A DNA stretch of 64,000 nucleotides, from positions 408,147 to 472,146 of the forward strand of contig CAVXTM010000001.1 in the NCBI GenBank assembly GCA_963764725.1, given 5' to 3'. The notes below the pieces were generated by a model. The model searched no databases, was not told the DNA's origin, and saw only the letters and a program-made list of their open reading frames with translations. Positions within the stretch are counted from its first letter, which is position 1. The number at the start of each line of letters is the position of its first letter. The position numbers and the translations under genes were made by a program. The stretch comes from an uncultured Gammaproteobacteria bacterium. GTDB taxonomy: Bacteria; Pseudomonadota; Gammaproteobacteria; JACCXJ01. Shown here piece after piece: positions 2,418 through 41,468 of the stretch.

Positions 2418-3155
<738 letters not shown>

Positions 3156-3481
3156 CCCCTTCGATTCATCTCGGGACATGCTGGTTAGACTTCTATCTCC
3201 GCAACCATGACTTTCCGAAGGCCTATTCAAAAATCGCCGCATAATGTACTTTGTTAATTGCAAAGAAGTCACGTTGGAAGACTCTAATAGCCAGCGGCTT
3301 TCGACCACGAACGACTTGAAACTCATCTGACGTCGCTCGTCACTGGCAGGGGGATCGGAATCTGCCAATGCCTAGGCGTCTTGTACTTTCCGATCCGGAT
3401 GGGTTCGCTTGGTGACGAGGCCGCGCGGCGGCCATTTACGCGCGCGTTTGGTTGCTGGCGACACATGAAGAGGAGACGAAC

Positions 3482-11137: not shown

Positions 11138-11899
11138 CTACCCAGCGCGCTTCAGCGTCCGCGCGAAATATTCGAGCGCGGTACGGGTCTTCGTTTCCTG
11201 AGCCCCGGCCGGGTCGATGCCAAGTTCGCGCAGATGGCTTTCAAACGCCCGCCGCGCTGTCGCGGCTTGATCCGGTTCCACCTTGATCGAAACTTCAAGT
11301 AAATCCTCACCGTCGGGAAGACGCCACTCTTCGGCAGTCAACTCATAGGGGAATCCCTTATGCTCCGTTTTCCAGCGGAGCACTCTGATCGGACCAAGCG
11401 CTCTGAGCCGCTCGAAGTTGATGGCGTGCGGGGAGAACTCAGTGAGAAAGCGCAGCTGATCCGCCGAGAAGAGTTTGTGGACCGGACGGTCACCCTTAGC
11501 CACTTCATCGATCTCGTCGCGTTTTTGCACTCCAGTAAGGGAGGCAGAGCAAACGACGCGGTCCCCCGTGCTATCCGCCTCTAACTTGAAACCCTCTGTT
11601 TCGATCCAGCTCTGCGGTACCGCACCGGGTTCGATCGGCCGGACCTTGACCGTGGAGTCATCATCATCCCCTTTGACCAAGCGTGCGCGAAGCACAACCC
11701 CCGCGTTGAACAAATCAAGGTTGACCGTGTCGTAGAAATAAATCACGCGGACCTCCGCCGAGTCCTCGTTAAGCTCCAGCGCCCTAAGACCCTGGAGTTC
11801 CTGATCCGGCCGTATGGTCACTTTGATTTCAACCCGCTCGACCCCTGTGATTGCATGGGTGTTGCTGGTGCGCTTGGCTGTTTTGCGAGTTGTTGTCAT
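11138..11899 (-). CDS. CYTH-like (adenylate cyclase-like) domain protein
   Basis: VEIKVT (ExK), YFYDT..LDL..GVVLRAR, STVKVRP, EVSIK, QETKT; RBS upstream of 11899. Confidence 0.7.
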   Translation of the reverse strand: MTTTRKTAKRTSNTHAITGVERVEIKVTIRPDQELQGLRALELNEDSAEVRVIYFYDTVNLDLFNAGVVLRARLVKGDDDDSTVKVRPIEPGAVPQSWIETEGFKLEADSTGDRVVCSASLTGVQKRDEIDEVAKGDRPVHKLFSADQLRFLTEFSPHAINFERLRALGPIRVLRWKTEHKGFPYELTAEEWRLPDGEDLLEVSIKVEPDQAATARRAFESHLRELGIDPAGAQETKTRTALEYFARTLKRAG

Positions 11900-12705
11900 G
11901 ATCAGTCCTCCTGTGGTTGTGTTCAGGTCGCTGCGGTACACCGGACATTGGATCCTTATAGATGTCTTGGTAAAGCGGCTATGGGGTCTTCGTTGTCGAA
12001 GGCGGCGGCGCCGCGACAAGACCGCTCGCCCCTCGTAGCACAACGATTTACGATAGATGCGCATTACTCGAAGTTCCGAAAGCGCTATTTTTCTGATGTC
12101 TGAGCGGTCATTGGTTCGGCGGCGATGGTGGCCCACGACCTCGGCCTGGGACACCAAATCGGGGGTACGGCGGGGTACGGGGTACGCCTAGTGATTAGTT
12201 TTCTCTCCATAGCTCCCCTTGCTCTCGTTATCGATGAATCGCTGCCGGCCGTACCGGTCATGGGTGAACCGCGGAAGGCACATTGTGATTGCTTAACCAC
12301 GCGCTTCGGGGATCCACCTGTCACTTCGATGGCGCCATCTTACACGCACACCGGCCGGCTTTTAGCAATTTCGTTCGGTAAAGGCTCTTAATCCGGGGCG
12401 TCGGGAACTAATGTATTACGTTATATTGAATTGATGACGGGAGGACGCTAACATTTTGTTCTGCGCTGCGACATTGGGAAGCGAAGCCTCGAACAAGCCA
12501 TCACAGTCCAGGGAACGGTATGCCCGCACGCTCGAAGATATCAGGGTCTCTCATCCGGTCGTACTGCTCCGTCCAAGGAAAGGAATCCGCTCCAACCAAG
12601 CGTTTTTCGTCGGCGATCGGCCGGTGGGTTGTCCTGAGCCTGATTTAAGGTTATGACTGCGTTAGGTAACACGCGATCCCCTTCGTATCGAGGAGCAAGA
12701 GATTA

Positions 12706-23123: not shown

Positions 23124-26100
23124 ATGCGCAATACTTACCACGTATTTTTAGCAGTCGTCCTCTCGTTTAGCTCGTATGCCGCAGCGTACGGAGAGGAGAT
23201 CCGCGATTACTACGCCGAACCGGGTCTCAATCCCTTCAAGGAGACCCTCAATCAAGATCTCAACGAACACATTGATCCCTTCTCGGGCACCTTGCAGCAC
23301 AAATACGTCGATATATACATCCCCGGCAACGGCGGTCTGGATCTCAAGGTGAGCCGCGTGTATACGAGCCCGCAAGAAGCTCTCGGGGTGCGCACCGTCA
23401 CCGGCGCAGGGTGGACCATGCATTTCGGCCGCGTCGTGATTCCTACGGACTACACGGACACGCTCTGCCTGCAAGACCTCTATGCGGTCAGCACCCGCGA
23501 TAACCCATCGATCGAATTCCCCGACGGCGGCCGCGAGCTCTTGGTCCTCGATGCAGTGCACGGCACCTATCTCCTCACTAAGGGCGGCTGGCGGGCCATG
23601 TGTAACGGCAGCGGTCAGGGGCTCATCGTGACCTCCCCCACGGGCACGGTGTACACCATGGACGCGCTCAACACCCTGAACAACCATTGGAGCTGGTACA
23701 CGACCAATATTCGTGATCGGCATGGCAACACCATCGACGTCACCTACAAGACCAACTCGTCGAACTTTATTTACATCGACACGGTGACTGCAAGTGACGG
23801 CCGTCAGGTCAAATTCGAGTACCTCAATGAGGAAAGCGCGACTATCCGGCTCGATAAGATTACTGCCAATGAGCAAACGTGGATTTACCGTTACGAACGG
23901 ATCGAGGCGATCGGTCCCGGGTACGGCAACAATTACCATAACCTCATCGAGGTGATCCGTCCCGATGGTTTGCGGTGGCGATATAGTTACTATCCTTATA
24001 CCTCCCTTGAGACGGCCGGCAACTACGCTCTCAAAACCGTCACCTATCCGTACGGGGCCAATATTACCTACACGTATCAGCATATCGATTTTACCCCCAC
24101 CGATCTGTCGATCGATAGGACCACCGCTATCGCCACCAAGGAAGTTTCCAGTAATCCACCCGGGATCTCGATGGGCCCCGGCTCGTCCTTACCCAGTGGC
24201 ACCTGGAGATTCGAGTTCGCGCCCCATTCACCGGAGTTATTCTTTACCGACAATGGCACGTGGACTTCCGGACTCGACAAGACCACCGTGAGAATGCCGG
24301 GCGGCAAGCAGGTTTACTACCACTATGGGTACTCCTATACCGGGGGGCTGTCGAGCGGCATCCTGTGGGCGACCGGTCTCCTCTACAAGCAAGAAAGCTG
24401 GGACGGCTGCTCGGCCGACAGTTGCGTGGGCGTGGCATCGACATTAGTGGATGAAGTTACCAACGGCTGGGAACCGCGATTGATCTCCCGCGAGAACTTT
24501 TGGCATGGCCGTGAGGGGGTCGAAGAGGACACCTACGCCCCCCAGCTCGCGAGGAAGGTTCATAGCCGCGATGATTCCGGAAATGAGATCCGCTATGAGC
24601 AATACGATGCCTTCGGTAATGCAGGGAGAATCATTGAGAGCTCCAACCTCACTGGGGATCCCGACAAGGTGACCGAGCTCGGCTACTACATCGATCGCGA
24701 GAAATGGATCCTCCATCAAGTCGACGACGAGACCATCCTCGGGGTGAATGGCGAGGTCGTGAGCCATACCGATCGTAGCTTCAACGAGGACGGCGATCTC
24801 ATCGCCGCGGATCAGAACGGCGTCCTGACGAGCTATACCTACACTGCCGAGGGGGATCTCGCCACCGCAACCGACGCGCGCGGGAGTACTACGCGCTATG
24901 CGCGCTACCGCCGCGGCAGCGCGCAGATCGAAGAGCATCCCGAGTCAGTCACGCTTTCGCGCGTCGTCAACGACACCGGCACCGTCGCTTCAGCGATCAA
25001 CGGCCGGGGATTTACCCGCCACTTCACCTATGACGGCACGAACAGGCTGACTGGAATCACCTATCCGAACCATGCCCCGGTCAGCATCGTCTGGGACGCG
25101 AGCGGCAAGACTCTCACCCGCGGGAGCTACGAGGAGCGCATCGCATTCGATGGCTTCGGACGGGTGGTCAGCACCACGCGCGCCGACATGGCGCGCGATA
25201 TTAGCATCACACAAACGATGAAGTACGACGTCCACGGCAACAAGATCTTCGAGTCCTATCCAAACTCCGAAGCCGGGGTGAGTTATGCCTATGACCTTCT
25301 CAAGCGCCTCACCACCCTGCGGCACCCCGACGGAGCCCTACGGAGCTACGTCTACGGGGGCGGTGAGGTAGCGGAAACCGACGAGCGGGGCAATACGACG
25401 AATTACCTCTACCGCAGCTTTGGCGATCCGGACAAGGACAAAGTCCTTGTCATGATTACCGAGCCGAATGGGATCTACACGATCCTCGACTTCAACCTAC
25501 TCAACCTCCTGACGAGCGTGTTCCAGGGCGACCTTACCCCCACGGGATCGCTCTCCGGCTTTACGCGTCGGCTGAGCTATGACAGCCGCTATTTCCTCAC
25601 CTCGGTCTCAGATCCCGAGACCGGAGTGACGAGTTACGGACGCGACGAGGTGGGCAACATGATCGCGCGGCAGGTGGGAAGCTCGGGGGTGACGGCCTAC
25701 ACTTACGATGCTCTCAACCGCCAGGTGTTCAGCGACTATCCGGGCACCACCCCCGATGTGACCAAGAGCTACGATGCCGATGGACATCTCACCAAGCTCA
25801 CCAACAGCCAAGCCGTGATTGACCACCGTTATGACGAAAACGACAACCTCATCGAAAAGGTACTGACGCTCGACGGCGTCCCCTATGCGCTCAACTTCAC
25901 CTATAACGCGCTCGACGGTCTCGCAACGCTTACCTACCCCTCGGGGCGGGTGGTCAACTACCTCCCGGATGCCTTCGGTCGGCCGACTCAGGCCGCGCCT
26001 TACGTGAGCGGGGTGAGTTATCATCCTTCCGGCCAACTCGCCCGGATTAACCACGCCAACGGCGAGCGCACTGAGATCACGCTCAACGAGCGGCAGTGGA

Positions 26101-28164
26101 TTTCCGAGTTTCTGCACCACGGACTTGCGGAGCTCCATTATGGTTACGATGCGCTCGGCAACGTGCTCGGCCTGACCGATCCCTTGAACCCCGCCGAAGA
26201 CCGCGCCTTCGGTTACGATGCGCTCAATCGGCTGACGAGCGCCCAGGGCCGGTGGGGTCAAGGAACCTTGAGCTATGACGCCTTGGGCAATCTGCGCTCG
26301 CTGAACCTGGGTGCGAACACCGAGCGCTACGACTACAACGGCCTGCGGCTCAGGACGCGCATCCATAACGAGACCACTAGCTCCTGGTACACCCATGATG
26401 TCTATGGCAACGTCCGGCTGGACGTGGATGTGCTCGGTTTAAGCTCAAATGCTCCGCAGTACCGAGGGCGGCAGTATACCTACGATGATGCGGGAAACTT
26501 GCGCAATGTGCTCCGAACGGAGAACATCGGGAGCAATCCGGTGTCCTCGCAGTACTACTTCGACTACGATGCTTTGGGGCAGCAGATCCGGCGCACCGCT
26601 CCCAACGGGGAGATCATCCACTTCGTCTATGGGCGCACCGGGCAGTTGCTCGGTGAGTACAGCGGCTCGCTCGGTTACGGCAAAGAATATGTCTACCTCG
26701 GCAGCCAGTTGGTCGGGAGCGCCCAAACCAACCAACCTCCCGAGGCCCAGGCCGGAGCGGACCGGAGCGTCAACGGCGGGGCGTCCGTGCAACTCGATGG
26801 CCGGGGCTCGACGGATCCCGATGGCGCCATCGCGCGTTACGCCTGGGTGCAGACCGAGGGCAGTCCCGTTACCTTGAGCGGGGCAGCTGCAACGGTGAGC
26901 TTCAGCGCCCCGGTGCTGGAGAACACCTCGGTGCTCGGCTTCACCCTCACCGTCACCGATGACAGCGGCGAGGAGGCACAGGACAGCGTGCGGATCACCG
27001 TGCTCGGGAACCCTGCACCCACCGCTGATGCAGGCCCCGATCAGAGCGTGCGGGGTGCTGCCATTGTCGCTCTCGACGGGACGGCCTCGAACGACGCCGA
27101 CGGCCACATCGCCCGCTACGCCTGGCGGCAGATCGGCGGCATGCCTGTGACCCTGAGTGGGGCCGACACCGCGATCCCGAGCTTCACCGCACCGACGCTA
27201 GCCGAGGCCCAGGTGCTGAGCTTCGAGTTGACCGTAAGCGACAATCTCGGCGCGCAGGCCACCGCCGCGGTGCACATCACCGTCCTCGGCAACGAACCCC
27301 CGAGCGCCCATGCGGGTGCCGATCAAACGGTGCCGGGTGGCAGTCCGGTAGGGCTCGATGCCACGGGCTCGACGGATCCCGAGGGGAGCATCATCGCTTA
27401 CACTTGGTCGCAGACGGGCGGTCCGGCCGTGAGCCTGATTGGCGCAGATACCTCGACCCCGACCTTTATGGCCCCCCTCTCTGGCAACGACGAGGTGCTC
27501 AGCTTCACCCTCACGGTGAGCGACGACATCGGTGCGAGTGGAAGCGATTCGGTGACCATCACCGTGCAACGCGTAGCGCTCGGCAATCAACCCCCGAGCG
27601 CCGAGGCGGGAGTCGATCAAGAGCTACGCGCCGGGGGTGTTGTAGAGTTGAATGGCGGGGCCTCCACCGATCCCGAGGGCCAGCCCCTTCGCTATCAGTG
27701 GGCCCAACTCGAAGGCCCGCGCGTCCAGCTCGCGGGCGCGAGCACCTCCCGGGCGCGCTTCACCGCCCCTTATGTCGCGATCGACACGCTCCTCCGCTTT
27801 GAGCTGACGGTGACCGACAGCGCAGGGCTCTCGGCCGAGGACACGGTGGACATCGTGGTGCAACCGAATGTACAGGGCACAGACACGCAAGCACCCATCA
27901 CCCGGCTCTTCACCACCCCCCTGCGCTTCGGAGGCAGGGTATACTACCCCGTGGCTTCTCAGCGCCAACGAGCCTGCCACCACCTACCTGCGGGTGAGCG
28001 ATCCCAACGCGCTCAGCCTGGGGGCGCTCAAGACCACCGAGTGGCAGGTGTATCGAGGACCCTTCCTCGTCACGCTCACCGCCGCTCGGACCCTTACCGT
28101 GGAGTACTACTCCATCGACAGCGCCGGGAATCAGGAATCCATCAAAACAAGGGTATTGCAGTGA
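23124..28164 (+). CDS. Secreted Rhs/YD-repeat shell protein ending in four PKD-like domains and a small Ig-like domain (frameshift near 27950)
   Basis: Sec signal; IDPFSG..GAGW N-domain; many YD repeats; four N.PP.A.AG.DQ.V repeats at about 26730-27870; tail ...EYYSIDSAGNQESIKTRVLQ* in the 27868-28164 frame. Confidence 0.82.
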
Positions 28165-29113
28165 TGACAACCAAAGGACGGTGTATGCGTTTCCTTATTG
28201 CGTGTCTCCTCACACTCCTCGCCCTGCCGGCAGGAGCGATCGAGCGGGTCATCCACTACCACAACGACGCCTTGGGCTCCCCCATCGCCGCGACCGATCA
28301 AGATGGCCGCGTGGTGTGGCGCAAGTCGTATGGGCCCTATGGCCAGCCTATCGGCCCGGGGGCCCCGAACGAGCCCGGTTACACCGGCAAGTTCGACGTG
28401 CCCGGCCTCGGCATCCAAAACTTCGGGGCCCGCTGGTACGACCCGCGGATCGGCCGCTTCCTCGCCATCGATCCCGCGGCTTCGATCCCTAGAACCCCCA
28501 GAGCTTCAACCGGTACGCGTATGCCAATAACAACCCGTATCGCTTTGTAGACCCCGACGGCAATAGTCCCCTCGATGTAGGCTTCTTCATCGCCGACACC
28601 GTCAGCTTCGGGCTCGCGGTGGCCTCGGGAAACCCGGCCGCCATCCAGTCTGCGGCCTTCGACTTCGCTGCTAGCGCCGTGGGCCTTGCGAGCCCGATAC
28701 CGGGAACCGGGCTCGCTATCAAGGCGGCACGGGCGGGGGATAAGATCAGCGACGCGGCGAAGATAACTAAGGGTGCAGCGAACCCAGTTCCAGAAACGCT
28801 TGCTCGTGTTATTCCGGGTCGAGGGCCGTTTCCGACACTTGGCTCGCCAGGGAAAAGCGATGTGTTCGTTACGGCTGCCGACGATATTGCGGGCTTGAAC
28901 GCTAAACAAATCGCCGATCGACTGACTATCGCTCCAGCTGACTCCTTCACTGTCATCAAGTTTCCAACTCCAGAGAGTGGGTTAGCCAGCCCGGTCAACC
29001 GGGTTGGTCCCGGCTTCGTTGGCGGAGGGCGAACAGCTGGCGGCGCTCGCGAGTTCGTCGTCCCCAACGGACCGATTCCGTCGGGCGCAAGCACTGAGAT
29101 TATCGGCCCATGA
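28164..29113 (+). CDS. Stand-alone Rhs core protein with its own signal peptide and C-terminal Ntox10-like toxin (1-bp deletion near 28478; TAG at 28490)
   Basis: TGATG coupling; MRFLIACLLTLLALPAGA signal; HYHNDALGSP, GARWYDPRIGRF, NRYAYANNNPYRFVDPDG; tip VFVTAADD...GFVGGGRTAGGAREFVVPN. Confidence 0.78.
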
Positions 29114-29394
29114 AGCTGCAGCCGCAAGAAACCGATCTTGTAGGGACATGGATTAGCAGCGGACGTGCGGTGCGCGCAGACGAAACTTGTAGGCGTATCG
29201 AATGGCTTGTCAAGGAAGTCTTGGAAGAAGTGGCCGTGAGTCCTCAATGGGGCGCATGGGAGACGCTATTCCGCGATCTCGAAGATGGTCGCTTTTGGGA
29301 GCGTACTTACCCTGAAGGGCATATGCACGGCGGTGGCCCCCCGCGACTGACATGCATCTCGCCGGAAGAGGCTAGAACCAAGTATGCGATATAG
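29110..29394 (+). CDS. Imm27-family immunity protein
   Basis: ATGA overlap with the toxin; WETLFRD..DGRFWE..YP...HGGGPP.L. Confidence 0.8.
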   Translation: MKLQPQETDLVGTWISSGRAVRADETCRRIEWLVKEVLEEVAVSPQWGAWETLFRDLEDGRFWERTYPEGHMHGGGPPRLTCISPEEARTKYAI

Positions 29395-29439
29395 TGCGGG
29401 AATATATGACCACAGATCCCGTAGCGATCGAGATTGTCA

Positions 29440-29823
29440 ATGTCCAGCCATGCCGTTGATGACCTTGTTGGCAGGACCTTCTACGCCTCCATTGCGGAGC
29501 CTTGGGATTTTGAGTCAGATGCAGGGCAAAACAAGTTGGAGGGCACGATTCAGCGCGCTCTTTTTGATCGGTATGGGAATGTGCTGTTGCTTTGTCAGGT
29601 GGTACCCTTTTTTTTCGCGACAAAGAGAATCGACGAAGTTGTAGCAGTAAACAGGTATCAGGGTAGCCAAGATGTGCTTGATGCTCTGAGAGCTAAAGGT
29701 ACCGCAACTTTGAATTTCATGTTCCAGAGATCTGGGGGCGCGTTCCAGGATGGTAGTATTGAGATTTCATTGAGCGATAGGCGTAGTTGCGGTTTTGTGG
29801 TCGGGACGATGCACTTGCCGTAA
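29440..29823 (+). CDS. Hypothetical protein, possible orphan immunity protein
   Basis: Lower-GC ORF of about 127 aa directly after the immunity gene. Confidence 0.55.
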   Translation: MSSHAVDDLVGRTFYASIAEPWDFESDAGQNKLEGTIQRALFDRYGNVLLLCQVVPFFFATKRIDEVVAVNRYQGSQDVLDALRAKGTATLNFMFQRSGGAFQDGSIEISLSDRRSCGFVVGTMHLP

Positions 29824-29899
29824 AGCTGCCAAACGCTTCCTTTGTAAGCTAGCCTGCGAGGCACGCGAGAACAAATAGGCGTTCAGCGTATGTAGATGT

Positions 29900-30485
29900 A
29901 GGCTTTCTCAGGCACGATACTGAAGGGGTAAGTCAGCCCTCGCCAGCACCGGTGAAACGACAAGAAGAGGAGCGGCCGCGCTTCCCTTCCGCTTATTTCT
30001 GGGCGATGGCACGGATTTATGAAGTCTTCCCGCTGCTCTGTCCGCGTTGCGCCGAAGACGATCATCGCCTTCGTCACCGAGGCGGGCTCGATCAAGCGTA
30101 TTCTCGAATACCTCGGGCAGCCGACAACTCCGCCCCCCCATTACCCCCGCTCGCGGCCCGCCGCACTGGGGTCGATGACATCGATCAAACGCCGAAGTAC
30201 GACGCGGCGCTCGCTCAGCGAGCGCCGGACTATGAGTTTGATCAGACCATCAGCTCATTTCGTCTCCCGGTCGAGATCCTCGGCCGGCAGAGCTGCCCTC
30301 GCCCTAATACACCCGTTTCCGGTCCCTGAGTCACCCCGACGCACCAGGCAATGTCCTTTCCTGCCGCTAGACGGCCCACACATGGCCTCAATCGCCAGGG
30401 TGCGACCTGTCGCGCGACAGTATGTCGCCTTCCCATCCCCATGGGCGTAAGCTAGAATCTGGGTATGTGGTTGGATTTCCTATCC
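29900..30485 (+). mobile_element. IS91/ISCR-family remnant: transposase C-terminus and oriIS end
   Basis: WAMARIYEVFPLLCPRC..IIAFVTE..IKRILEYLG.P...ARGPP; GTGGTTGGATTTCCTATCC at 30467-30485 resembles ISCR oriIS. Confidence 0.75.
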
Positions 30486-30593
30486 ATTATCCATCGACCT
30501 GGAGATGCCCCCACCTCCACGATCAGAGCCGTGGCATCGCCCGAGCCGTCCGCCATCGTGGAACACCATCGCTCCACGAATAGCCCAGCTGCC

Positions 30594-32644
30594 ATGAGAA
30601 CTGCGGCCACCGAAGCTCTCTACGTCCGAAATACCCCGGAGGCCCGCGACCACGTGCAACGCTGGATGCCGATGGAGGTTGACCAGCTCAAGTCCGAGCC
30701 ACTGCGGCGCGTCGCCCCGTTTGAGGCGACGCTTCTCGAACGCGGCTTCCCGTTCCACGAACTTTCGCTGGTCATCAGTGCCGACCGGCGAGCACACGAC
30801 CCGGTCTACGGCGCCCACCGGTGGTGGGCGCGGCGCCCGCCAGCGCTCCTCAGGTCCATTTTGCTCACTGCGGCGCTGCCGGCTGACGTGTCGTCCAATG
30901 AATTCTGGGCGCTGTATGGGTCGAACGGGGCGCTTGCTCGATGGATGGCGTGTCCATGATCCCTTCGTCGGGGGTGGCTCGACACTTGTCGAGGCAGCTC
31001 GTCTGGGAAGCAGGATATCGGGCGGCGACATCGATCCGTTGGCGGTCGAACATCGTGCGGTATGAGCTGAACCCTGCGTCGGCAGAACAAATCCGTGCCG
31101 CAGGGGAGCAGCTGCTGACCTACGTTCGCTTGCAATGTGGGCACCTCTATCCGTCATCGGCACGCAGGCAGCCGCTCCATTACTTCTGGCTCCACGAAGT
31201 CACTTGCCCCTCCTGTGGCGGGATCGGCCTGTTGTATCGCGATCTCCTGCTCACACGAGATCGGCAGAAGCCAGGCGCCGTGGTTCGCGATCACCCTCTC
31301 ACCGTCTTCTGCCCGAGTGACCTAAGCATCCATCATCTCAACAGCCCGGATCGTCGGGAGCTTCGACATCGCGGTCGTCGATGGCCGATTGCCCGCGGCA
31401 CGTTCAGCCGCAACAGATACACCTGCCCTCACTGCGGCAAAACTTCGACTCACAAGGAACTACTCACGGGTAGCGCACCACGCCGCTTGATTGCTGTGGA
31501 GGACACTGCACCAGGGCAACGCCGAACCCTGCGCAAGCCATCACGCGAGGACATAGCGGCGATGGCCCGCGCAGCCGTGTGGCTGAGCGAACACCGCAAC
31601 ACATTGGCGCTCCCGACCGCAGTACTGTCGAAGGAGCGTCACGACGAGCGGCCTCGGAGCTTCGGGATGCTCCACTCGACGGACCTGTTCACCGACCGGC
31701 AGCTGACGGTCTTTGGCTCTGCGTTTCGATGGCTTGGTACGGCAGACCTTGAACCGAACGTGCGGGATGGTCTCCGTCTCGCCGTCTCGAACGCGCTCGC
31801 GACGAATAACAAGCTATGCAGCTATGCCTACGATTATGGTCGGCTGTCGGCGCTCTTCAGCGTGCGCGGCTATTCGCTGCCTGCGCTACCGGTCGAACTG
31901 AACCCTCTCCATCCAGACAGCGGTCGTGGCACGCTCCACCACTGCATAGAACGCGTCGCGCGAAGTGGTCGTGAGAAGGTTCGCCGTCACGTCTGGTCAC
32001 CGGCCCGTGACTGTGTCTATGCTCGAACCCTTGATTTGCCTACCGGTGTTGCCACCGACGATGTCCGCTGTACCTCGGCAACCTCCCCGCCGGCGGCTGG
32101 TGCGCCGAGCGCAGACCTTTGCGTCTTCGACCCGCCGTACTTCGACTACATCGCATACGAAGAACTATCGGAGTTCTTCCGGGCATGGCTCGAGCCGAAG
32201 GCAGTGTCGGGAACGCCTCTCCTGCCCGTCGGGCGCGACCCCGGCGAGTCATTCGGCCTCGAGCTCGGCGTAGCGCTGCGCGCAGCATTAGCACGCCTCG
32301 CACTAGGCCGCCCCCTCGCCTTCACGTATCACTCGACCAACCCCAAGGCCTGGCGAGCCGTGGGCATCGCAATAGACGAAGCAAAGCTTCGGGTTATGGG
32401 CCTGTGGCCCGTGTACAGCGACGGCCACATGGGTCACCACAGCCACCCCGGAAACTGCGAGTGGGATTTAGTGGTCGTGTGCCGTCGCGTCAGTGAGACG
32501 GTACCAGCAACCGCCACATTCGATACCGACGTCTGGGCCCGGACAGCACAACCGCTCGCTATCGGTGATGCCGATCGCACCAGCATGAAACTTGCGATTT
32601 CCATCGTCAGCTCCCGTTTCGGGACCGCGGCCAAGGAGTTATGA
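30594..32644 (+). CDS. DUF1156/COG1743-like Zn-ribbon adenine DNA methyltransferase (frameshifts near 30935 and 31050; start uncertain)
   Basis: HRWWARRP, DPFVGGGSTLVEA (motif I), CPSC/CPHC Zn ribbon, DPPYFD (motif IV), FTYH. Confidence 0.85.
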
Positions 32645-32645
32645 C

Positions 32646-33979
32646 TTGAACGCCGACGAGCGCAGTCAGCTCATCCGGGCTCGCCAGCAGCCAGCTACAC
32701 GCCCGCCTGAACGACTTTGGGTGCGGGACCAGTGGCAGGAGTTCCCGGTAGTACAGGTCCCGGTGGAAGCGCTCGCGCTCAACGTCGACAACCGACGATT
32801 TGCGGCTGAGCGCACATGGGCGGAAGAGAAGCTCGGGCGAGCACTCGATCCCGAGAACCGGCCCGAAGACGAGCGCGTCGTCGAACAGATTTTGCTCGAC
32901 ACCGCGCTCGACTTCGATGGTGATCGTCTCGTGGGTAAGCCGAGTAAGGATTACGACGCCCTGAAGAAGGACTGGCAGCGACGGCATCAAGAATCGCCCC
33001 TGTGGATCCGCCCAGACGGAACTGTCCGGAACGGAAACCGACGGCTCGCGATGCTGAAGCGGCTGCAGCGCGAAGAAGGTATAGAGGGCTTCGAGTACGT
33101 GGACGTCGTGATTCTAAAGCCCGATGACATCGATGAGGTCGCGCTGTTCGACATGGAGCAGCGCGAGCAGCTGACCGAGAACCTCAAGGTCCGATACACC
33201 GACATAAATCTGCTTCTTGCCATACGAGCGGCTGCAGAGTCACGGGGCATCGACTGGTTCAACCCGGACGACATCGACCGCGTCGCGGGCGAACTCCAGC
33301 ATGTCGTCGGGAACAACAAGGCCTACGCCGCTATCCAGCTCAGCGCCATCCGTTACATGGATGCGTACCTGGATAGCTCCGATCAGGCTGGCCAATACCA
33401 CAAACTCATCGGTCAGATTGAGCGCTTCCGTGACGTCGGTAAAGCAATGACCAAGCTTGAGGTCGACTACGAAGATGATGTCCCAGCCATGCTGCGAGTT
33501 CTGTTCGCGGCCATCCGTGCGGGTGCCCCGCACGGCGACATTCGCGTTCTGAAGAACTTATTCCTCCACGACCGCGCGAGATATAAACAGCTGCTCGCGC
33601 AAGTGGACGGAATCGAGGCGAGCTGGGAGCAGGCCGCCGGGCCGGACAGCCTCGCGGAGCCTGAAGTGGTCGACATCGCCCCTGCTGCAGACGAAGAAGA
33701 GGACGAAGACGAGCTAGCCGAGCCGCCGGGTCCGAACGTGCCCAACTACCCGCGTGACGATATCCGGGACGCCATCGACAACACGATCGATGGCTTCCAA
33801 GCGTCCATGACCGATGACGTCGCCAAGACGCTCCGCCAGATCCTCAACCGGTTAGAGGCCTCAGCGATGACGGCGGTAAGCTCGATCAAGCTCTCGGGGG
33901 TGAGCACGCTGTACGGGTCCGGGACGCTCTCGCTGCGATCGTCGCCTGGGCGGATCGTCATCGCGACCTGCTCGGTTAG
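32646..33979 (+). CDS. ParB/Srx-like N-terminal domain protein with acidic linker (frameshift near 33860)
   Basis: AAGGAG RBS and TTG start; LALNVDNRR, PLWIRPDGTVRNGNRRLAML; C-terminus ...WADRHRDLLG* in the shifted frame. Confidence 0.75.
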
Positions 33980-33981
33980 CG

Positions 33982-35949
33982 ATGGCCGGCGAACCTGCCG
34001 ACGCGACTATCCGCATTAACGGCGAGTCGGTCCTAGTAACCGGTTCCGAGGCTCTACAGAGTCGCAACGCGCGTCTCTTCTTCCGCTCCGTTCTCGGCGC
34101 GGATGGCGAGGCCGGCGGCTGGCGTTGTCCGCGTCGCAACCGCTCCCTCGCTGCGCTGGTCGTTCGGGTCAACAATTTCCTGGAGAACCAAGGGTGGCGA
34201 GTCGAACGAGAAGGACTAGCCGACCGGGAAGTTGAGCGAGAGCTCGAACGTCGCCGCAGCTTCGAACGGACCCGCCGAACTGCCTCCGAGTGGAAAGAGG
34301 GAAGCCCGGTCATCGACCGCGAGGCGGTTCTCGCCGGGATCAATGATCTTGGGTGGTCACAATCGCGAACTCTGCGGCCACACCAGGTAGATGGCCTCTT
34401 GCACGCCCTCGTCGCGGGAAACGCAGCAAACTTTTCAGTACCGGGCTCGGGCAAGACCGCTACGGCACTCGCCGTCGCGGCCGCGCATCTAGTGGCCGGC
34501 ACGATCGACACAGTTGTAGTCGTGGGACCCTTGGCCTGCTTCAGGCCGTGGGAAGACGAAGTGGCAGCGACGCTCGGTAGCGTGCTCCATACGAGGCGCA
34601 TCCGTGGTCCGGCTCGCACGAGACGCCTGCAGTACGACTCAACTCAGCCTCGCGATCTGCTACTCCTCAGCTACGCGACTGCAGCCGCAGACCTACTTGT
34701 ACTAGTCGAACTCTGCAGGGGCCGCGATGTGATGCTCGTCGTCGACGAGTCGCACCGCATCAAGAGATTCCGTGGTGGCCTGTGGGCACCAGCACTCATG
34801 CAGATCGCAGAACACGCACGGGTCCGGCTACTTCTTTCCGGAACACCGATGCCCCAGAGCGGCCGTGATCTGTATAGCCAGCTCAACGTCATCTGGCCCA
34901 ACCGGCAGCTCACCGGTCCACCGGACACATTCGCCTCGCGGGTCGATTCTCAATTCGAAGGCGTGCTGTGCGACATCCATCCGTTCGTTGTGCGGACGCC
35001 GAAAGAGAGCCTCGGACTACCGCCGTATGAGATCCATCGGCACGACATCGCCATGAACGCGACACAGGCCGAGATCTACGAACTGATCGTCAACCACTTC
35101 CGACGCAGGCTTGAAGACGCCGACGCATGGGTCGACAAGTTGGACGCCCTGCGCCGTGCGCGGCCGATTCGGCTCCTGCAGGCTGCCACTAATCCGAACC
35201 TGTTCAACCGGTCCGACAGCTACTACCGCGTCCCCCGCATCGACCGCGCGAATCCGACCCTCATGGATCGGCTCGCCACGTACATGGAGCACGAAGTCCC
35301 GGCCAAGCATGAACTAGCTCTGGTGCTCGTCGCCGAAGCAACGGGGCGCGGCGAAAAGGTTGTCTGTTGGAGCAACTTCCTCATCAACCTCGATCAATTC
35401 GGCGATCTCGTCCGGAGACGCCTCGACATCCCGTGCCATCAGGTCGACGGGCGCGTGCCGACGGACGACGAGCCCGTTGATGACCAACCAGCCGCGTCGC
35501 GCAAGAACTCGGAGGAGATTGATACGCGCGAGAGAATCATTGCTCGCTTCCTCCGAACGCCCGGCCCAGGGGTGCTAATCGCCAATCCCGCATCGTGCTC
35601 GGAATCCATCTCGCTTCATACCACCTGTCATAACGCGGTTTACCTTGACCGAACTTACGACTGCGCCCAGTTCCTGCAGTCGATCGACCGGATTCACCGC
35701 CTCGGCTTGCCAGCTGATGTCACTGTCCAGGTCCATATTCTCCGCGCCAGTCTCAATGGCGAGCCCGCAGTCGACCACCTCGTCGACGCCTCACTCCTGG
35801 CGAAGGAGGCGGTGATGCTTGAACTACTCGAGGGTGCCGTCCTGCAGCCCATTAGGCAGAGCGACGACCCTGTCGACGATGCTGAGGGCAATCGGCAGGA
35901 TCTCGAAGCGCTGCTCCGGTATCTCCTCGGAGAGGAGGTGGGCAGCTGA
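33982..35949 (+). CDS. SNF2-like (SF2) helicase/translocase
   Basis: LRPHQ, NFSVPGSGKT, VDESHRIK, LSGTP, SESISLH, QSIDRIHRLG. Confidence 0.92.
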   Translation: MAGEPADATIRINGESVLVTGSEALQSRNARLFFRSVLGADGEAGGWRCPRRNRSLAALVVRVNNFLENQGWRVEREGLADREVERELERRRSFERTRRTASEWKEGSPVIDREAVLAGINDLGWSQSRTLRPHQVDGLLHALVAGNAANFSVPGSGKTATALAVAAAHLVAGTIDTVVVVGPLACFRPWEDEVAATLGSVLHTRRIRGPARTRRLQYDSTQPRDLLLLSYATAAADLLVLVELCRGRDVMLVVDESHRIKRFRGGLWAPALMQIAEHARVRLLLSGTPMPQSGRDLYSQLNVIWPNRQLTGPPDTFASRVDSQFEGVLCDIHPFVVRTPKESLGLPPYEIHRHDIAMNATQAEIYELIVNHFRRRLEDADAWVDKLDALRRARPIRLLQAATNPNLFNRSDSYYRVPRIDRANPTLMDRLATYMEHEVPAKHELALVLVAEATGRGEKVVCWSNFLINLDQFGDLVRRRLDIPCHQVDGRVPTDDEPVDDQPAASRKNSEEIDTRERIIARFLRTPGPGVLIANPASCSESISLHTTCHNAVYLDRTYDCAQFLQSIDRIHRLGLPADVTVQVHILRASLNGEPAVDHLVDASLLAKEAVMLELLEGAVLQPIRQSDDPVDDAEGNRQDLEALLRYLLGEEVGS

Positions 35950-35950
35950 C

Positions 35951-36920
35951 GTGCCTGTGCTCTCTTCCTGGTTCACGGCACCTCGAGTGCGTCGTCTGCA
36001 CGAGGTGCTCGCGGCGATACCGGAACGGTCGCTAGCGCTCGCCGAGGGCGATGCGAAGCTGTGTATCTGGCGGCGTTGTGGTGGGCCGATCGATGAAGTC
36101 GGCGTGTTGGTCGAGGTTCTCGTCCATGCCGAACTTGTGCGCCGCGAGAAGGCATCACTCCGGTTGACTGCCGCTGGGCGCCGGACACTCACGCGTAACC
36201 GCGTCGAGCAGAATCGGCCGCTCGCGCTCGCCCTCGTCCGAGCGGGACTGCTCCATGACCAAGCGCGAGCATTGCTCGACTCCTTCCCTGTCGACCCTGA
36301 CGGCAGCTTGACTTGTCGAACCAACGATGCGCGTCGTGTTGCTCCCCAGCTCGTTGGGCTTGTTCAGCTCTGGACCGAGGTCCGCACTGGCTCCACGTTG
36401 ACCATCCCGCGTCCACTCGTTGACGAGCTCGCCGCCGTGTGGGCGCTCATTGCACCGCCGTCAGAGGCACGGGCAGAGCAAGAGAAAAGACGCAAGTCGA
36501 TCGGGAACCGCGCAGAGGCCTACAGCTACCAACTGGAGCGGCTCACAGCGGCAGCCGCGTCCGGGATCGTCTGGGTCGCGCAGGACGACGACACGCTTGG
36601 CTATGACCTGGAGGATCGCAGTACGTTGCCCCGTAGACGGATCGAAGTGAAGGGAAGTGGAGGAGAAGCTAGAGGCTCAGTTCTTCATGTCGGACAACGA
36701 ATGGCGAAAGGCCCACGAGAACCCCGGAAGCTACGAGATCCACTTCTGGGGCGGGATAGACCTCAATCGACCCACCGCCGACGAATACTCCGTGCTGCGG
36801 TCGATGGGATATCCGATTGTGCTGCGAGACGTGCCAGCGCTCCTCGCCGCGGGAGAGCTCTTGGCGAAGCCAGATCGATGGCGCGTCGCGGCGGCTCGCA
36901 GCGCGGAGACGCCGCTATAG
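35951..36920 (+). CDS. wHTH-like N-terminus fused to DUF3883 (NO VEIN-type PD-(D/E)xK) endonuclease (frameshift near 36670)
   Basis: IGNRAE..YE, GYDLED...RRIEVKGS, FFMSDNEW, YEIHFW. Confidence 0.82.
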
Positions 36921-37443: not shown

Positions 37444-37544
37444 TGTTGCAAGGGCTTAGAGACCGAAGGCAAAACGGTTCTCGGTCATTACCCTGAGCGA
37501 GCAACAAAGGGTCAAGGCTCGACATATAAACTGATATTCGTCTT

Positions 37545-37800
37545 GACCCGGTTCTGTGGACACTTCATGTTTACGGGGCGAGGTGTTCGCTATGGCAAAG
37601 ATGCAACCGAAGTACACGCTGGAGTTTCGGCGTCAGATGGTGGAATTGGTTCGTGTCGGTCGTAAATCAGCGAGCTGTCACAAGAGTTCGGCTGCTCGTC
37701 GTGGGCTATCCGGTACTGGGTCAAACAGGCCGATCGAGATGCGGGTGGGCAATGGCGATTTGACAACGGCGGAGCGCCAGGAGCTGACGCGTCGTCGAGA
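37545..37800 (+). mobile_element. IS3-family OrfA remnant
   Basis: MAKMQPKYTLEFRRQMVELVR...LSQEFGCSSWAIRYWVKQ...LTTAERQEL. Confidence 0.75.
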
Positions 37801-38177: not shown

Positions 38178-38864
38178 ATGAGGGGAACAGCCTTACCGCC
38201 GGGTTTATCCAGGAGCGATCGTAGCTCGATCCGCTCGCTAGGCGTTTCGACGCGCGGCCGGGAACGCAGGCTGCTGCTGGCAACCGCCGTCTGCCTCGGA
38301 ATGATGCTGCCGGTCCAGGCTGACTACGAGGCCGGGGTGACGGCCTATTACCGCCAAGACTACGAAACGGCGTTCCGAGAGTTCAAAACGGTTGCGGCGG
38401 CCGGCGACGAAAACGCGCAATACAATGTCGGCCTCATGTATTTGAAGGGACAAGGCGTGCCCGAAAATCCCGAAGAAGCTTCGCGCTGGTTCCATCACGC
38501 CGCCATGCAAGGGCAGGTGGACGCGCAAAGCTTTCTCGGCGCTCTCTACGCTGACGGTCAGGGCGTGCACCAAGATTACTCACTCGCCGCCTACTGGTTG
38601 ACGCGGGCCGCCGATGCCGGCCATCCGGCTGCCCAAAGTTTTCTCGGACAACTCTACTTCGACGGTCTCGGTGTCGCGCGGGATTATGTTCAAGCTTACG
38701 TCTGGTTCAGCCTGGCGGAGGCGAGCGGCTACCCGGAGTCACAGGCCTGGCGCGAGAAAACCGAGACGCGCATGAGCGGCGCGCAACATGAGGAGGCAGC
38801 CCGGCGAGTCGAAGAGCGATTGCCGCATTGGGCGCAGCGGACTCAAGGGCTAGAGCAGCCGTAG
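38178..38864 (+). CDS. Sel1-repeat protein
   Basis: AQYNVGLMY..GQGV, AQSFLG.LY..G.GV repeats, AYVWFSLA. Confidence 0.9.
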   Translation: MRGTALPPGLSRSDRSSIRSLGVSTRGRERRLLLATAVCLGMMLPVQADYEAGVTAYYRQDYETAFREFKTVAAAGDENAQYNVGLMYLKGQGVPENPEEASRWFHHAAMQGQVDAQSFLGALYADGQGVHQDYSLAAYWLTRAADAGHPAAQSFLGQLYFDGLGVARDYVQAYVWFSLAEASGYPESQAWREKTETRMSGAQHEEAARRVEERLPHWAQRTQGLEQP

Positions 38865-38883
38865 ATCCCGCGGCGGCGGGCGG

Positions 38884-40356
38884 TTAGCCGAGTTTGAAGC
38901 CGCTGCCACGTGCTCGACCGGATACCCAAAGCTGCATGAAGTCACTGACCGAAAGGCGCTGCAAGCCTTCGTCGTCTTCGAAGAGCGCGACGATTTCGTT
39001 GCTCTTAGCCGGTGTAAATACCTCGTGTAGATTACGCTTGAATTTGTCCTTTAGCAGCGGCAGCGCCTCAAGCCGGCGGCGCGGATGGCCGAGCGGAAAC
39101 GCAACGGCGCTTTCGGCTTGGGCGCCGTCTTGGAAGTAAACTGTGACGCGGTTGCCCACGGCGCGTTGCTCCGGATCATAATAATCACGCGTATAACAGG
39201 GGTCTTCGATGACTTCCATCCGGGCGCGCAGCGGGTCGATGCGCGGATCGGCGGCAATCTGGTCCTCGAAGTGATGATAGTGCAACTCCCCAAATAAGAG
39301 ACCGATCGCCGCCACATACTGCAGGCAGTGGTCGCGATCGGCGGGATTCGTGAGCCGCCCCCGCTTGTCGATGATGCGCAAGGCGGGGTTTTGGGTGGCG
39401 AGCACAATCTTGCCGATGTCCGCGAGCCGGTCTTTGACATCGGGATGCAGTCTAATCGCGGCCTCGGCCGCGGTCTGCGCGTGGAACTCACAAGGATAGG
39501 CCACCTTGAACAGGATGTGCTCGACCACATAGGAGCTCAGCGCACGCGAGAGATCCAAAGACTTTCCCCGCAACAACGCTGAGTGAAAGCCGTAGCGGGC
39601 AGCGCTCAAGGCATGCGGATAGCCCGGTTCGCCCGCGAGCGTCAGCAAGGCCAGGCGCACCCCGCGCGCCGTGGCATCGCCTGCGGCCCAGGATTTACGC
39701 GGGCCGGCATCCGGCGCATGACGGTAGGCGCGCAAGTTTCCCCCATCCAATAGCGCCTGCGACACGGCGTTTATCACCTCTGCCTTGCCTCCTCCGAGCA
39801 ACGCGGTGGCGAGCGCCGCCGAGGCGATCCTAACCAGGATCACGTGATCGATGCCGATCTCGTTGAAACTATTGGTCAGCGCCAGCACGCCCTGGATCTC
39901 ATAAGCCTTGACGAGTGCCGTCAGAAGCTCACGCATGAGCAAGGGCTCGGCGCCGCGAGCGAGCCGCCGGCGGCTGATGTAATCCGCGCACGCTAGCAGA
40001 GCCCCCAGGTTATCCGAGGGATGTCCCCACTCGGCGGCGAGCCAGGTATCGTTGTAATCCAACCAGCGGATGAGACAACCGATGCAGTAGGCCGCTTGCA
40101 CCGGGTCGAGCTCGAGCGCGGTTCCCGGGACGCGGGCTCCGCCGGCGAGCATCGCGCCCGGCACGACCGGACCGATGTGGCGGCGGCACTCGGGGTTGTT
40201 TAGCGCGGCGCAAGCGCAGCCGAGCGCATCCATGAGGCAGTAACGGGCGGCGCTGAGTGCTGGCTCGCTGGGGGGCTCGTGACCGGTGATGTAATCCGCG
40301 ATGATACCCAGCAACGGATCCGGGCCTTGCGTGGCGCAGCTCGCCATCGAGGTCAT
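38884..40356 (-). CDS. prpD: 2-methylcitrate dehydratase
   Basis: RWLDYNDTWLAAEWGHPSDN, RKSWAAGDA, EFHAQTA, DRDHCLQY, PLGHPRRR. Confidence 0.95.
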   Translation of the reverse strand: MTSMASCATQGPDPLLGIIADYITGHEPPSEPALSAARYCLMDALGCACAALNNPECRRHIGPVVPGAMLAGGARVPGTALELDPVQAAYCIGCLIRWLDYNDTWLAAEWGHPSDNLGALLACADYISRRRLARGAEPLLMRELLTALVKAYEIQGVLALTNSFNEIGIDHVILVRIASAALATALLGGGKAEVINAVSQALLDGGNLRAYRHAPDAGPRKSWAAGDATARGVRLALLTLAGEPGYPHALSAARYGFHSALLRGKSLDLSRALSSYVVEHILFKVAYPCEFHAQTAAEAAIRLHPDVKDRLADIGKIVLATQNPALRIIDKRGRLTNPADRDHCLQYVAAIGLLFGELHYHHFEDQIAADPRIDPLRARMEVIEDPCYTRDYYDPEQRAVGNRVTVYFQDGAQAESAVAFPLGHPRRRLEALPLLKDKFKRNLHEVFTPAKSNEIVALFEDDEGLQRLSVSDFMQLWVSGRARGSGFKLG

Positions 40357-41468
40357 GACCGCTCGGCGAGTGGAACGTAGGCTCGCGGCGCGGGACCGAC
40401 ATACTCGGCCAGCGGCCGGATGAGCCGGTTGTCTTTTCGTTGCTCGTTGATATGGGCCGCCCATCCGGCGCTGCGGGCGATGACAAAGATCGGCGTGAAC
40501 AGCGACGCCGGGATGCCGCAGGCGCGGTAGACCAGGGCGCTATAGAAATCGAGATTCGGGAACAGGTGTTTCTCGCGCCGCATGACGGTTTCGATGCGCT
40601 CGGCGATCGCATAGAGCTGGGTATCGCGAGCCTCCTCGGCGAGCCGGCGCGCCCACTGTTTTATTATCGGCGAGCGCGGATCGCGGCGCTTGTACACCCG
40701 GTGCCCGAAGCCCATGATCAACTCCTTGCGCGCCAGCCGTTCGAGGATCCCTTGTTCGGCCTCGTCGGCCCCGCCAAAGCTCGCGATCAAGGCCATCGCC
40801 GCCTCGTTGGCGCCTCCGTGCAGCGGTCCGCGCAAGGCGCCGATGGCGCCCGCGATGGCGGAATAGAAGTCGGCCCGGGTCGAGGTGATGACACGCGCCG
40901 CGAACGTCGAGGCATTGAACTCGTGTTCGGCATAGAGAATGAGCGACACCTCCAGCGCGCGGCGATAGATTTCCTCACCAGTGTGGTCGTGCAAGAGATG
41001 TAGGAAATGTCCGGCGAGATCCGCCGCGGGAGAACCGAGATCTATTCTTAGACCGCGGGTGTGGAACTTATACCAATAGAGCAGCATCGCGGGCAAGCGC
41101 GCTAGTAGCCGTTCCGCGAGGGCAGGGACATCCGCCGATTCGGGTTCGAGACAACCTTGGGCCGACACGGCGGTGCGCAGCACATCCATCGGGTGGGCCG
41201 CGGCCGGCAGCCGTTCAAGAAGCGTTTTGAGGTCCGGCGGCAGTTCCCGCGCGCCCGCCAGCCGCATGCGGAAATCGCTAAGATGGCCGGCGTTTGGTAA
41301 TTCGCCGTACAAAAGCAGGCAGGCGACTTCTTCGTAACTCGCCCGCGCCGCGAGATCTCCTACGTCGTAGCCGCGATAAAAGAGGCTATCGCCCGCAGTC
41401 TCGGCCGTGCAGATCGCCGTGCGTCCGGCGACGACGCCCTCGAGTCCTCCGGTGGTTAGCGATCCCAT
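40353..41468 (-). CDS. prpC: 2-methylcitrate synthase
   Basis: YAEHEFNASTF, GPLHGGANE, MGFGHRVY, FPNLDF; ATGA overlap with prpD. Confidence 0.92.
   Translation of the reverse strand: MGSLTTGGLEGVVAGRTAICTAETAGDSLFYRGYDVGDLAARASYEEVACLLLYGELPNAGHLSDFRMRLAGARELPPDLKTLLERLPAAAHPMDVLRTAVSAQGCLEPESADVPALAERLLARLPAMLLYWYKFHTRGLRIDLGSPAADLAGHFLHLLHDHTGEEIYRRALEVSLILYAEHEFNASTFAARVITSTRADFYSAIAGAIGALRGPLHGGANEAAMALIASFGGADEAEQGILERLARKELIMGFGHRVYKRRDPRSPIIKQWARRLAEEARDTQLYAIAERIETVMRREKHLFPNLDFYSALVYRACGIPASLFTPIFVIARSAGWAAHINEQRKDNRLIRPLAEYVGPAPRAYVPLAERS

Follow-up and report, generated by a model that had tools for sequence, protein, structure and literature searches.

The stretch of DNA analysed here (the window: 64,000 nucleotides (nt) of contig CAVXTM010000001.1, positions 408,147 to 472,146 of the forward strand, from the uncultured gammaproteobacterium assembly GCA_963764725.1) carries a compact cassette of four genes. 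These encode, in order, a DUF1156-type DNA methylase, a ParB-like protein, an SNF2 helicase/translocase and a nuclease in which winged-helix domains precede a NOV_C (DUF3883) domain (Table 1). An earlier note, made from the sequence alone, had described four co-directional genes on the plus strand separated by junctions of 1–2 nt, and its coordinates were borne out. The indels that it implied were likewise present in the given sequence when the window was aligned to the intact homologues at L011, one of the related loci described below, to which the window's gene pieces are 61–78% identical. There are four frameshifts in the cassette, two in the methylase and one each in the ParB-like and nuclease genes, and none in the SNF2 gene.

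Table 1. Genes of the cassette, followed by neighbouring features, in window coordinates.
Feature	Coordinates	Strand	Remarks
DUF1156-type methylase, pseudogene	30594..32644	+	ATG 30594 (later start possible), TGA 32644
ParB-like gene	32646..33979	+	TTG 32646, TAG 33979; one frameshift
SNF2 helicase/translocase gene	33982..35949	+	ATG 33982, TGA 35949; 655 amino acids, unbroken
Winged-helix + NOV_C (DUF3883) nuclease gene	35951..36920	+	GTG 35951, stop 36920; one frameshift
RHS-repeat/PKD protein	23124-28550		1808 amino acids; Pfam RHS_repeat, PKD
Ntox10 toxin piece	28619-29113	+	Pfam 1.2e-40
Imm27 immunity gene	29110-29394	+	Pfam 3.3e-19
IS3-family transposase trace	37543-37662		blastn 74% over 120 nt

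The methylase is read in three frames, with switches near 30916–30920 and 31047–31052, while the ParB-like gene changes frame near 33857–33860 and the nuclease gene near 36664–36672, where the switch separates the EVK motif from the remainder of the domain. With three of its four genes frameshifted, the system in the window is most likely inactive, and this copy of the cassette is probably a decaying relic. The decay looks recent, since every conserved motif can still be read.

The designation of the first gene product as a zinc-ribbon adenine methyltransferase holds on intact homologues, in which a DUF1156 motif, an invariant four-cysteine insert and DPPY are found. The methylase pieces in the window are 62–75% identical to the intact homologue of 653 amino acids (aa) at L011, and matches to PF06634 (DUF1156; cut-off 24 bits) reach 22.8 bits for the window piece, 26.1 for L011 and 23.4 for a second intact homologue, at L038. 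All 22 homologues compared share HxWWARRP, DPFxGG, two CPxC pairs and DPPY without variation, and the window's reading frames contain every one of these motifs. The DPPY motif points to adenine rather than N4-cytosine as the probable target. The best matches of the methylase among PADLOC and NCBIfam models are HmaB, DUF1156_MTase and DUF1156_antiphage, and the relation is distant: the L011 and L038 proteins score 78 and 62 bits against NF042963 (DUF1156_antiphage), which has a cut-off of 1000, the match to the PADLOC model HmaB (1e-14 to 1.6e-19) covers short stretches only, and the cassette methylases are ~650–690 aa long versus ~950 aa for HmaB-type profiles.

The second gene encodes a protein that has at least 680 homologues of ~442 aa at E ≤ 0.001 (8000 candidates scored) and no match in Pfam, PADLOC or NCBIfam models. 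The window version is 78% identical to its L011 homologue over residues 1–405, with the remainder in another frame, and the nearest database proteins are 88–89% identical to the window's ParB-like part. The 120 homologues listed are 334–457 aa long, carry no Pfam domain and are called hypothetical where they are named. An AF2 model (pLDDT 78) shows an alpha+beta domain (residues ~20–160), a helical domain (164–330), a disordered acidic linker and a C-terminal helical bundle. In a Foldseek search with this model the eight best rows are all ParB-type, with 5K5D at the top, at weak E values of 0.05–3.4. A structural aligner run against 48,161 chains placed PadC (Z 7.2; root-mean-square deviation 3.5 over 123 residues), a KorB–cytidine triphosphate (CTP) complex (Z 7.1; 5.0 over 188 residues) and pNOB8 ParB (Z 7.0) in the top three positions; sulfiredoxin (Srx) matches followed at Z 6.1 and 4.7, and the nearest ESM Atlas clusters bear the automatic name ParB/Sulfiredoxin. 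Sequence-profile searches of the Protein Data Bank with two profiles returned low-complexity or chance rows only. At the level of residues, all 18 close homologues compared carry N-G-N-R-R-L unchanged, and N-R-R is invariant in 46 sequences of a wide set; profile alignment puts the motif in register with GERRWRAA of chromosomal ParB. The polar residues invariant across the wide superfamily are N46, R51, Q115, N131-R132-R133, E171, Q175, Y184 and R300. On the modelling we accept a predicted ParB/Srx fold for the N-terminal domain of this protein without placing it in PF02195; the name ParB-like, given in the earlier note, stands for the fold and the GNRR motif. Canonical CTP-switch proteins (ParB, KorB and PadC) resemble the modelled protein in N-terminal fold, three-part layout and the register of the arginine motif; unlike them, the cassette protein has no significant profile similarity, ParA partner or parS context, and is coupled instead to an SNF2 motor.

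That motor is encoded by the third gene. Its window copy matches PF00176 at 1.7e-12 and has kept all the columns, GxGKT and DESH among them, that do not vary among 23 sequences, and the intact homologues at L011 and L038 contain SNF2-rel_dom together with Helicase_C. The protein begins with a family-specific N-terminal domain of ~125 aa. Modelling of the complex, which the earlier note had proposed, gave a predicted contact between the ParB-like protein and SNF2 that passed its controls, with an interface score (ipSAE) of 0.68 versus 0.00 for the best of three controls, agreement between runs in at least 88% of contacts and a partner pLDDT of at least 75. Of 80 solved complexes 58 reach the ipSAE mark used, as do 2 of 110 mismatched pairs, counts that apply only roughly here because our own alignments were used. 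In the model, SNF2 residues 23–62, a region that includes the conserved R24, R27, F30, G35, R48 and R58, touch the helical domain of the ParB-like protein at residues 203–284 and 324–328. These predictions support the idea that the ParB-like protein binds the N-terminal domain of SNF2.

The window's nuclease gene encodes, in two frames, pieces with 61–63% identity to the L011 homologue that on their own fall below Pfam detection. Intact homologues match PF13020 (NOV_C; cut-off 22.1 bits) at 2.1e-11 and 1.2e-10, with scores of 44.1 and 41.7 bits. On intact proteins, Pfam confirms both the SNF2 and the DUF3883 labels assigned beforehand. The residues E189, D219, E221 and E232-V233-K234 are invariant. 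In the model (pLDDT 88), N-terminal winged-helix domains are followed by a PD-(D/E)xK domain; the fold matches are MarR/PadR-type winged helix-turn-helix proteins (Z 8.0–8.7), NhoI (Z 7.9), Hjc (Z 7.8) and FokI (Z 7.7 over 161 residues). As had been described for the window, the nuclease is a separate gene: in all 28 loci that have both, SNF2 (651–670 aa) and the NOV_C nuclease (316–319 aa) occupy open reading frames (ORFs) of their own.

These loci come from a scan with a ParB-like profile, one genome per species, which gave 30 loci with at least six phyla in their record titles (Actinomycetota, Chloroflexota, Acidobacteriota, Myxococcota, Gemmatimonadota and Pseudomonadota). By tblastn with the window pieces, the methylase was found in 30 of 30 loci and SNF2 in 29, the contig of L040 ending within the ParB-like gene; of the 29 SNF2-bearing loci, 28 also have the nuclease. 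One intact operon, at L026, comes from the cultured Paraliomyxa miuraensis SMH-27-4. Order and strand of the four genes are constant across loci, and the conserved arrangement that the earlier note had looked to is complete in 28 of the 29 loci that reach past SNF2. The genes are single open frames throughout except at L014, L032 and L039, and they are tightly packed, with junctions of 10 nt or less between methylase and ParB-like gene in 24/30 cases, between ParB-like gene and SNF2 in 26/28 and between SNF2 and nuclease in 28/28, many of them 4-nt overlaps. By contrast with this constancy, no homology family among 252 flanking ORFs spans more than three loci. Forty genomes related to that of the window, some of them flagged unpublished, gave weak partial SNF2 matches only (E 1.6e-15 or worse, identity up to 32%). 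The four-gene arrangement is far beyond chance and, given the conserved order, the unrelated flanks and the weak partial matches among relatives, the cassette is a discrete unit that moves horizontally. A housekeeping role in partition or repair was also considered, and was rejected because the cassette is scattered patchily over the phyla and its loci have no flanks in common.

The ParB-like protein has relatives beyond its close family: an exhaustive profile search gave 497 representatives at E ≤ 0.001, of which 193 reach ≤ 1e-10 and 51 reach ≤ 1e-30. The distant relatives are ~400 aa long and 25–31% identical, and keep N-R-R, E171, Q175, Y184 and R300; none of ten compared with Pfam had a significant match, and one had a marginal match to ddrB-ParB (E 0.032). 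A metagenome scan for this distant family with a profile built from 7 sequences yielded 80 loci, 66 of them non-redundant. Of the non-redundant loci, 37 extend for 3 kb or more downstream; in 32 of these the ParB-like gene is followed, on the same strand and within 2.5 kb, by an SNF2 homologue (30–37% identity, E 1e-70 to 1e-95). A NOV_C-type nuclease was detected by tblastn in 14 of 27 distant loci. At two distant metagenome loci, L096 and L128, large genes separate the ParB-like gene from the SNF2 homologue, which lies ~5.7 kb further downstream.

The methylase of these distant loci varies. Among the 66, a DUF1156-type enzyme is encoded upstream in nine, downstream in seven and on the opposite strand in one. 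In 23 distant loci without a DUF1156-type methylase, the 104 neighbouring ORFs include 14 NOV_C matches together with methylases of other kinds, namely N6_N4_Mtase (6), Eco57I/MmeI/TaqI_C-type (5–6) and D12 (4). As far as gene content can tell, the core of the system is the ParB-like protein, SNF2 and the nuclease, with a methylase that is interchangeable among four families. Such interchangeability is expected if methylation is merely the self-mark of a restriction system, and the swapped families at distant loci fit the earlier proposal that the methylase marks self. A type IV, modification-dependent reading was rejected separately, a dedicated methylase being retained in 30/30 loci.

We therefore consider it fairly probable that the window holds a degraded copy of a horizontally mobile, four-gene, restriction-modification-like defence operon that has decayed in this genome. 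The best reading of the family as a whole is an unnamed, modular system whose nearest neighbours are Hma/BREX-related type 1 and the lactococcal AbiR.

Several observations weigh against this reading. PF02195 (ParB_N) gave no match at E ≤ 0.05 in intact homologues of the ParB-like protein, its only match in the window's genome being the chromosomal ParB on contig C2. A comparison with chromosomal ParB by hhalign was not significant (probability 0.1–1.7%), and structural Z scores of 7.0–7.2 are middling by the aligner's own scale. The tie of the ParB-like protein to defence is one of context, because no PADLOC model covers it, and the 129 proteins that flank the cassettes are mostly ordinary (top Pfam families: amidohydrolases, SufBD and oxidoreductases), with two integrases, two N6_Mtase proteins and one IS66 also among them. 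At L036, an Actinomycetes metagenome-assembled genome (MAG), the position of the nuclease is taken by an unrelated gene of 300 aa (11417–12316) that has no detectable similarity to the nuclease profile and may be an alternative effector. Finally, the frameshifts in the window could be assembly errors, the assembly being of metagenome type and a DnaE-like gene on contig C8 being split as well.

If the four frameshifts were errors of the assembly consensus, the cassette would be intact in the organism and the system functional there. The assembly, in 19 contigs, looks metagenome-type or long-read; all motifs in the window are readable, SNF2 down to its last invariant column; and this alternative stays live because the C8 gene lies in pieces and because three related MAG loci (L032, L039 and L014) are also broken, in their ParB-like or SNF2 genes. 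The C8 gene, which encodes a second DnaE-like polymerase (2688–5335, minus strand), consists of two adjacent pieces at profile positions 2–536 and 536–887, the mark either of a further broken gene or of an indel in the assembly. A search for public sequencing runs that contain 30594–36920 listed none. However, rpoB, rpoC and dnaE, which served as an internal control from the same genome, contain no stops or shifts, and the RHS gene next to the cassette is a single ORF of 5.4 kb without a break. Thus four breaks in the 6.3-kb cassette stand against none in ~16.5 kb of these long genes, where ~10 would be expected at the rate of the cassette (Poisson P(0) ~3e-5, by our own arithmetic). The breaks in the ParB-like and nuclease genes also lie outside obvious homopolymer runs, and the cassette is surrounded by other decayed material in the form of lower-GC junk and the IS3 trace. 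The confinement of the breaks to the cassette favours real decay, and we regard an intact cassette obscured by consensus errors as somewhat unlikely.

The surroundings of the cassette were in part as the earlier note had placed them. It had set the four genes between an ISCR remnant and a toxin/immunity pair with IS3 debris: the pair is there, but upstream, and an IS3 trace is found downstream. The ISCR remnant was not recovered, as ORFs in 29384–30447 have no significant Pfam match and a blastn search of 29400–30620 against plasmids was empty. Immediately before the cassette, the RHS/PKD protein, Ntox10 and Imm27 make up a polymorphic-toxin locus. On the other side, around the IS3 trace, the GC content falls to 0.53–0.57 at 36.5–38.5 kb, versus 0.62–0.64 in the cassette. 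Genes for a Sel1-repeat protein, PrpD (2-methylcitrate dehydratase family) and a citrate-synthase-family enzyme occupy 38178–41468, so that ordinary chromosomal metabolism resumes ~1.3 kb downstream. Further along, a group II intron domain at 59723–59889 (plus strand) is the sole Rfam match in the window (RF02001, 120 bits, E 3.9e-24), and no tRNA genes were found in the window.

Beside the cassettes of other genomes, strong PADLOC matches were obtained to BovA, PDC-S24, type III REase, NsnA, QatC/D, SduA, a CBASS-type cyclase, IetA and mad2. These matches were tallied by family and not by locus, and the defence-island context that they give to the cassette loci is no more than suggestive.

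The mobility of the cassette could also be that of a selfish or mobile-element module, either an addiction pair of methylase and nuclease or a methylase–SNF2 device that protects or establishes transferred DNA. A comparable protective role has been proposed for DarB-like methylase–helicase dyads. Adenine methylases with SWI2/SNF2 ATPases, and ParB-superfamily domains, are placed in phage and conjugative-element proteins, on the invader's side, by PMC5512222. The cassette does travel as a unit between phyla, and of 76 plasmid records that carry SNF2 homologues of its clade, 66 are typed conjugative or mobilizable. Yet no ParB-like relative was found in 2.9 million viral contigs, where none of 35 pattern matches to the profile was confirmed, or by tblastn in the plasmid collection, and the neighbours of the 30 loci are for the most part chromosomal housekeeping genes. 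A purely protective device would moreover have no use for a dedicated nuclease whose catalytic residues are invariant, and in restriction-modification systems addiction and defence are compatible, neither excluding the other. We hold a selfish module to be very improbable.

For the defence operon, the parts suggest the following mechanism. In intact copies, host DNA would be marked by the DUF1156-type DPPY methylase, whose zinc-ribbon insert would read the target motif. The ParB/Srx-fold protein, bound in the model to the N-terminal domain of SNF2, probably acts as a nucleotide-dependent DNA-loading or sensing subunit, as its fold and the NGNRR motif would suggest. The SNF2 motor would translocate on DNA that lacks the mark, and the winged-helix/NOV_C PD-(D/E)xK nuclease would then cut this unmarked DNA, a role suggested by analogy with HmaA and AbiRiii, in which an SNF2 motor and a nuclease are fused. 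That a ParB-like gate licenses the nuclease, as put forward in the earlier note, is an inference.

The division of labour could be different, with the ParB/Srx protein itself as the effector, either a nickase regulated by nucleoside triphosphates (NTPs) or a nucleotide-degrading enzyme, and NOV_C as a second or back-up nuclease. ParB/Srx domains are reported to have DNase and NTPase activities in Osa, GmrS and ParB–methylase proteins (PMC5512222, PMC12839542), and the polar residues listed above are invariant across the wide superfamily. Its best structural matches, however, are CTP-binding proteins of the ParB type (PadC, KorB-CTP) and not nucleases, its modelled contact with SNF2 is made through the helical domain, as for a subunit, and the nuclease gene is kept in 28 of 29 loci. 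An effector role for the ParB-like protein is thus unlikely in our judgement.

More speculatively, a nucleotide-gated (possibly CTP-gated) ParB/Srx clamp or loader that recruits SNF2 through a private N terminus, together with a FokI-like winged-helix nuclease, may define a distinct class of restriction system in which any methylase can provide the self-mark, with AbiR as one branch and the present cassette as a DUF1156 branch; this we offer as a tentative and rather doubtful extension. If the main reading of the cassette holds, a ParB-type nucleotide switch of chromosome segregation would have been recruited as the sensor or loader of an ATP-driven restriction machine, one that spreads between phyla and swaps its methylase freely. 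It would also mean that an Hma-type helicase–nuclease effector can work with a partner other than a DUF499 ATPase, and would supply a testable mechanism for AbiR-like systems; to our knowledge, AbiR has stayed mechanistically unexplained since 2000. The window copy itself, as a decaying relic, matters less.

With regard to known systems, no PADLOC model (2023 version) fits any cassette protein over its full length, and none fits the ParB-like protein at all. That version passes over the family for want of a model of the ParB-like protein in Pfam, PADLOC or NCBIfam. The word 'undescribed', used in the earlier note, was nevertheless too strong: the architecture closely parallels that of AbiR as given in PMC13064643, and two of its components are common to Hma/BREX-related type 1. 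The four-gene architecture as such was not described in the open-access literature searched, supplements excluded, and the supplement of PMC12839542 may list variants. The genes of other systems said to be absent were indeed missing from the window in the case of DUF499, PglZ and DUF1998, while HsdS and HsdR were given no separate search.

DISARM class 1 (DrmMI, DrmD, DrmA, DrmB and DrmC) shares with the cassette an N6-adenine methylase and an SNF2-like protein, DrmD. The cassette SNF2 has weak PADLOC matches to DrmD and DrmA; the DrmD equivalog gives 15 bits (cut-off 610). Neither DrmA/DrmB (DUF1998) nor a PLD nuclease is in the cassette locus, and the only DUF1998/MZB matches in the window's genome, at C1:35630 and on C6, fall elsewhere than in the window. 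The BREX hallmark PglZ (PF08665) was not found in that genome, which is 96.9% complete.

Closer in content is Hma (HmaA/B/C), the DUF499-centred BREX-related (BR) type 1, which according to PMC12839542 has in common with the cassette a DUF1156-type methylase, an SNF2 helicase and a NOV_C/PD-(D/E)xK nuclease and is, like the cassette, read as restriction-modification-like. The same paper defines Hma/BR by its DUF499 ATPase, in whose place the cassette has the ParB/Srx-fold protein. No flanking family of any kind is common to more than three of the 30 loci, the DUF499 ATPase is absent from all of them, and the only DUF499 in the window's genome lies at C12:118580–119656 (a 1087-aa open frame, E 1.3e-21), where it may belong to a true Hma/BREX-related locus. 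The helicase and nuclease are fused in 79% of BR type-1 taxa (PMC12839542) and are thus usually a single protein in Hma, whereas those of the cassette are separate genes; HmaA was not among the PADLOC matches of the cassette SNF2.

AbiR, from the Lactococcus lactis plasmid pKR223, consists in the account of PMC13064643 of a ParB-like AbiRii and of AbiRiii, which combines a restriction-endonuclease domain with an SNF2 ATPase; it depends on the LlaKR2I methylase, in whose absence it is toxic. The best structural match reported there for AbiRii, 5K5D, is also the top Foldseek match of the cassette ParB-like model. As a phenotype, AbiR is also associated with interference with phage DNA replication. 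AbiR and the cassette differ in three respects: the nuclease of AbiRiii is fused N-terminal to the helicase, whereas the cassette encodes its nuclease, which has winged-helix domains, in a gene of its own further downstream; AbiR includes the sigma70-like AbiRi, whereas the 30 cassette loci have no conserved fifth gene on either side; and AbiR borrows the C5 methylase of an adjoining type II system, whereas the cassette is led by a dedicated DUF1156 methylase. A related arrangement is found on a conjugative dairy plasmid of L. lactis (NZ_CP087603.1, 36584–50050; L141), where a type III methylase and an endonuclease are followed by a protein annotated by NCBI as 'ParB N-terminal domain-containing' and homologous to the ParB-like superfamily (hhalign 99.5%), by an SNF2 homologue and by a hypothetical protein of 201 aa with no detectable similarity to the NOV_C nuclease profile. 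Likened by its published description, AbiR would be the closest functional parallel to the cassette.

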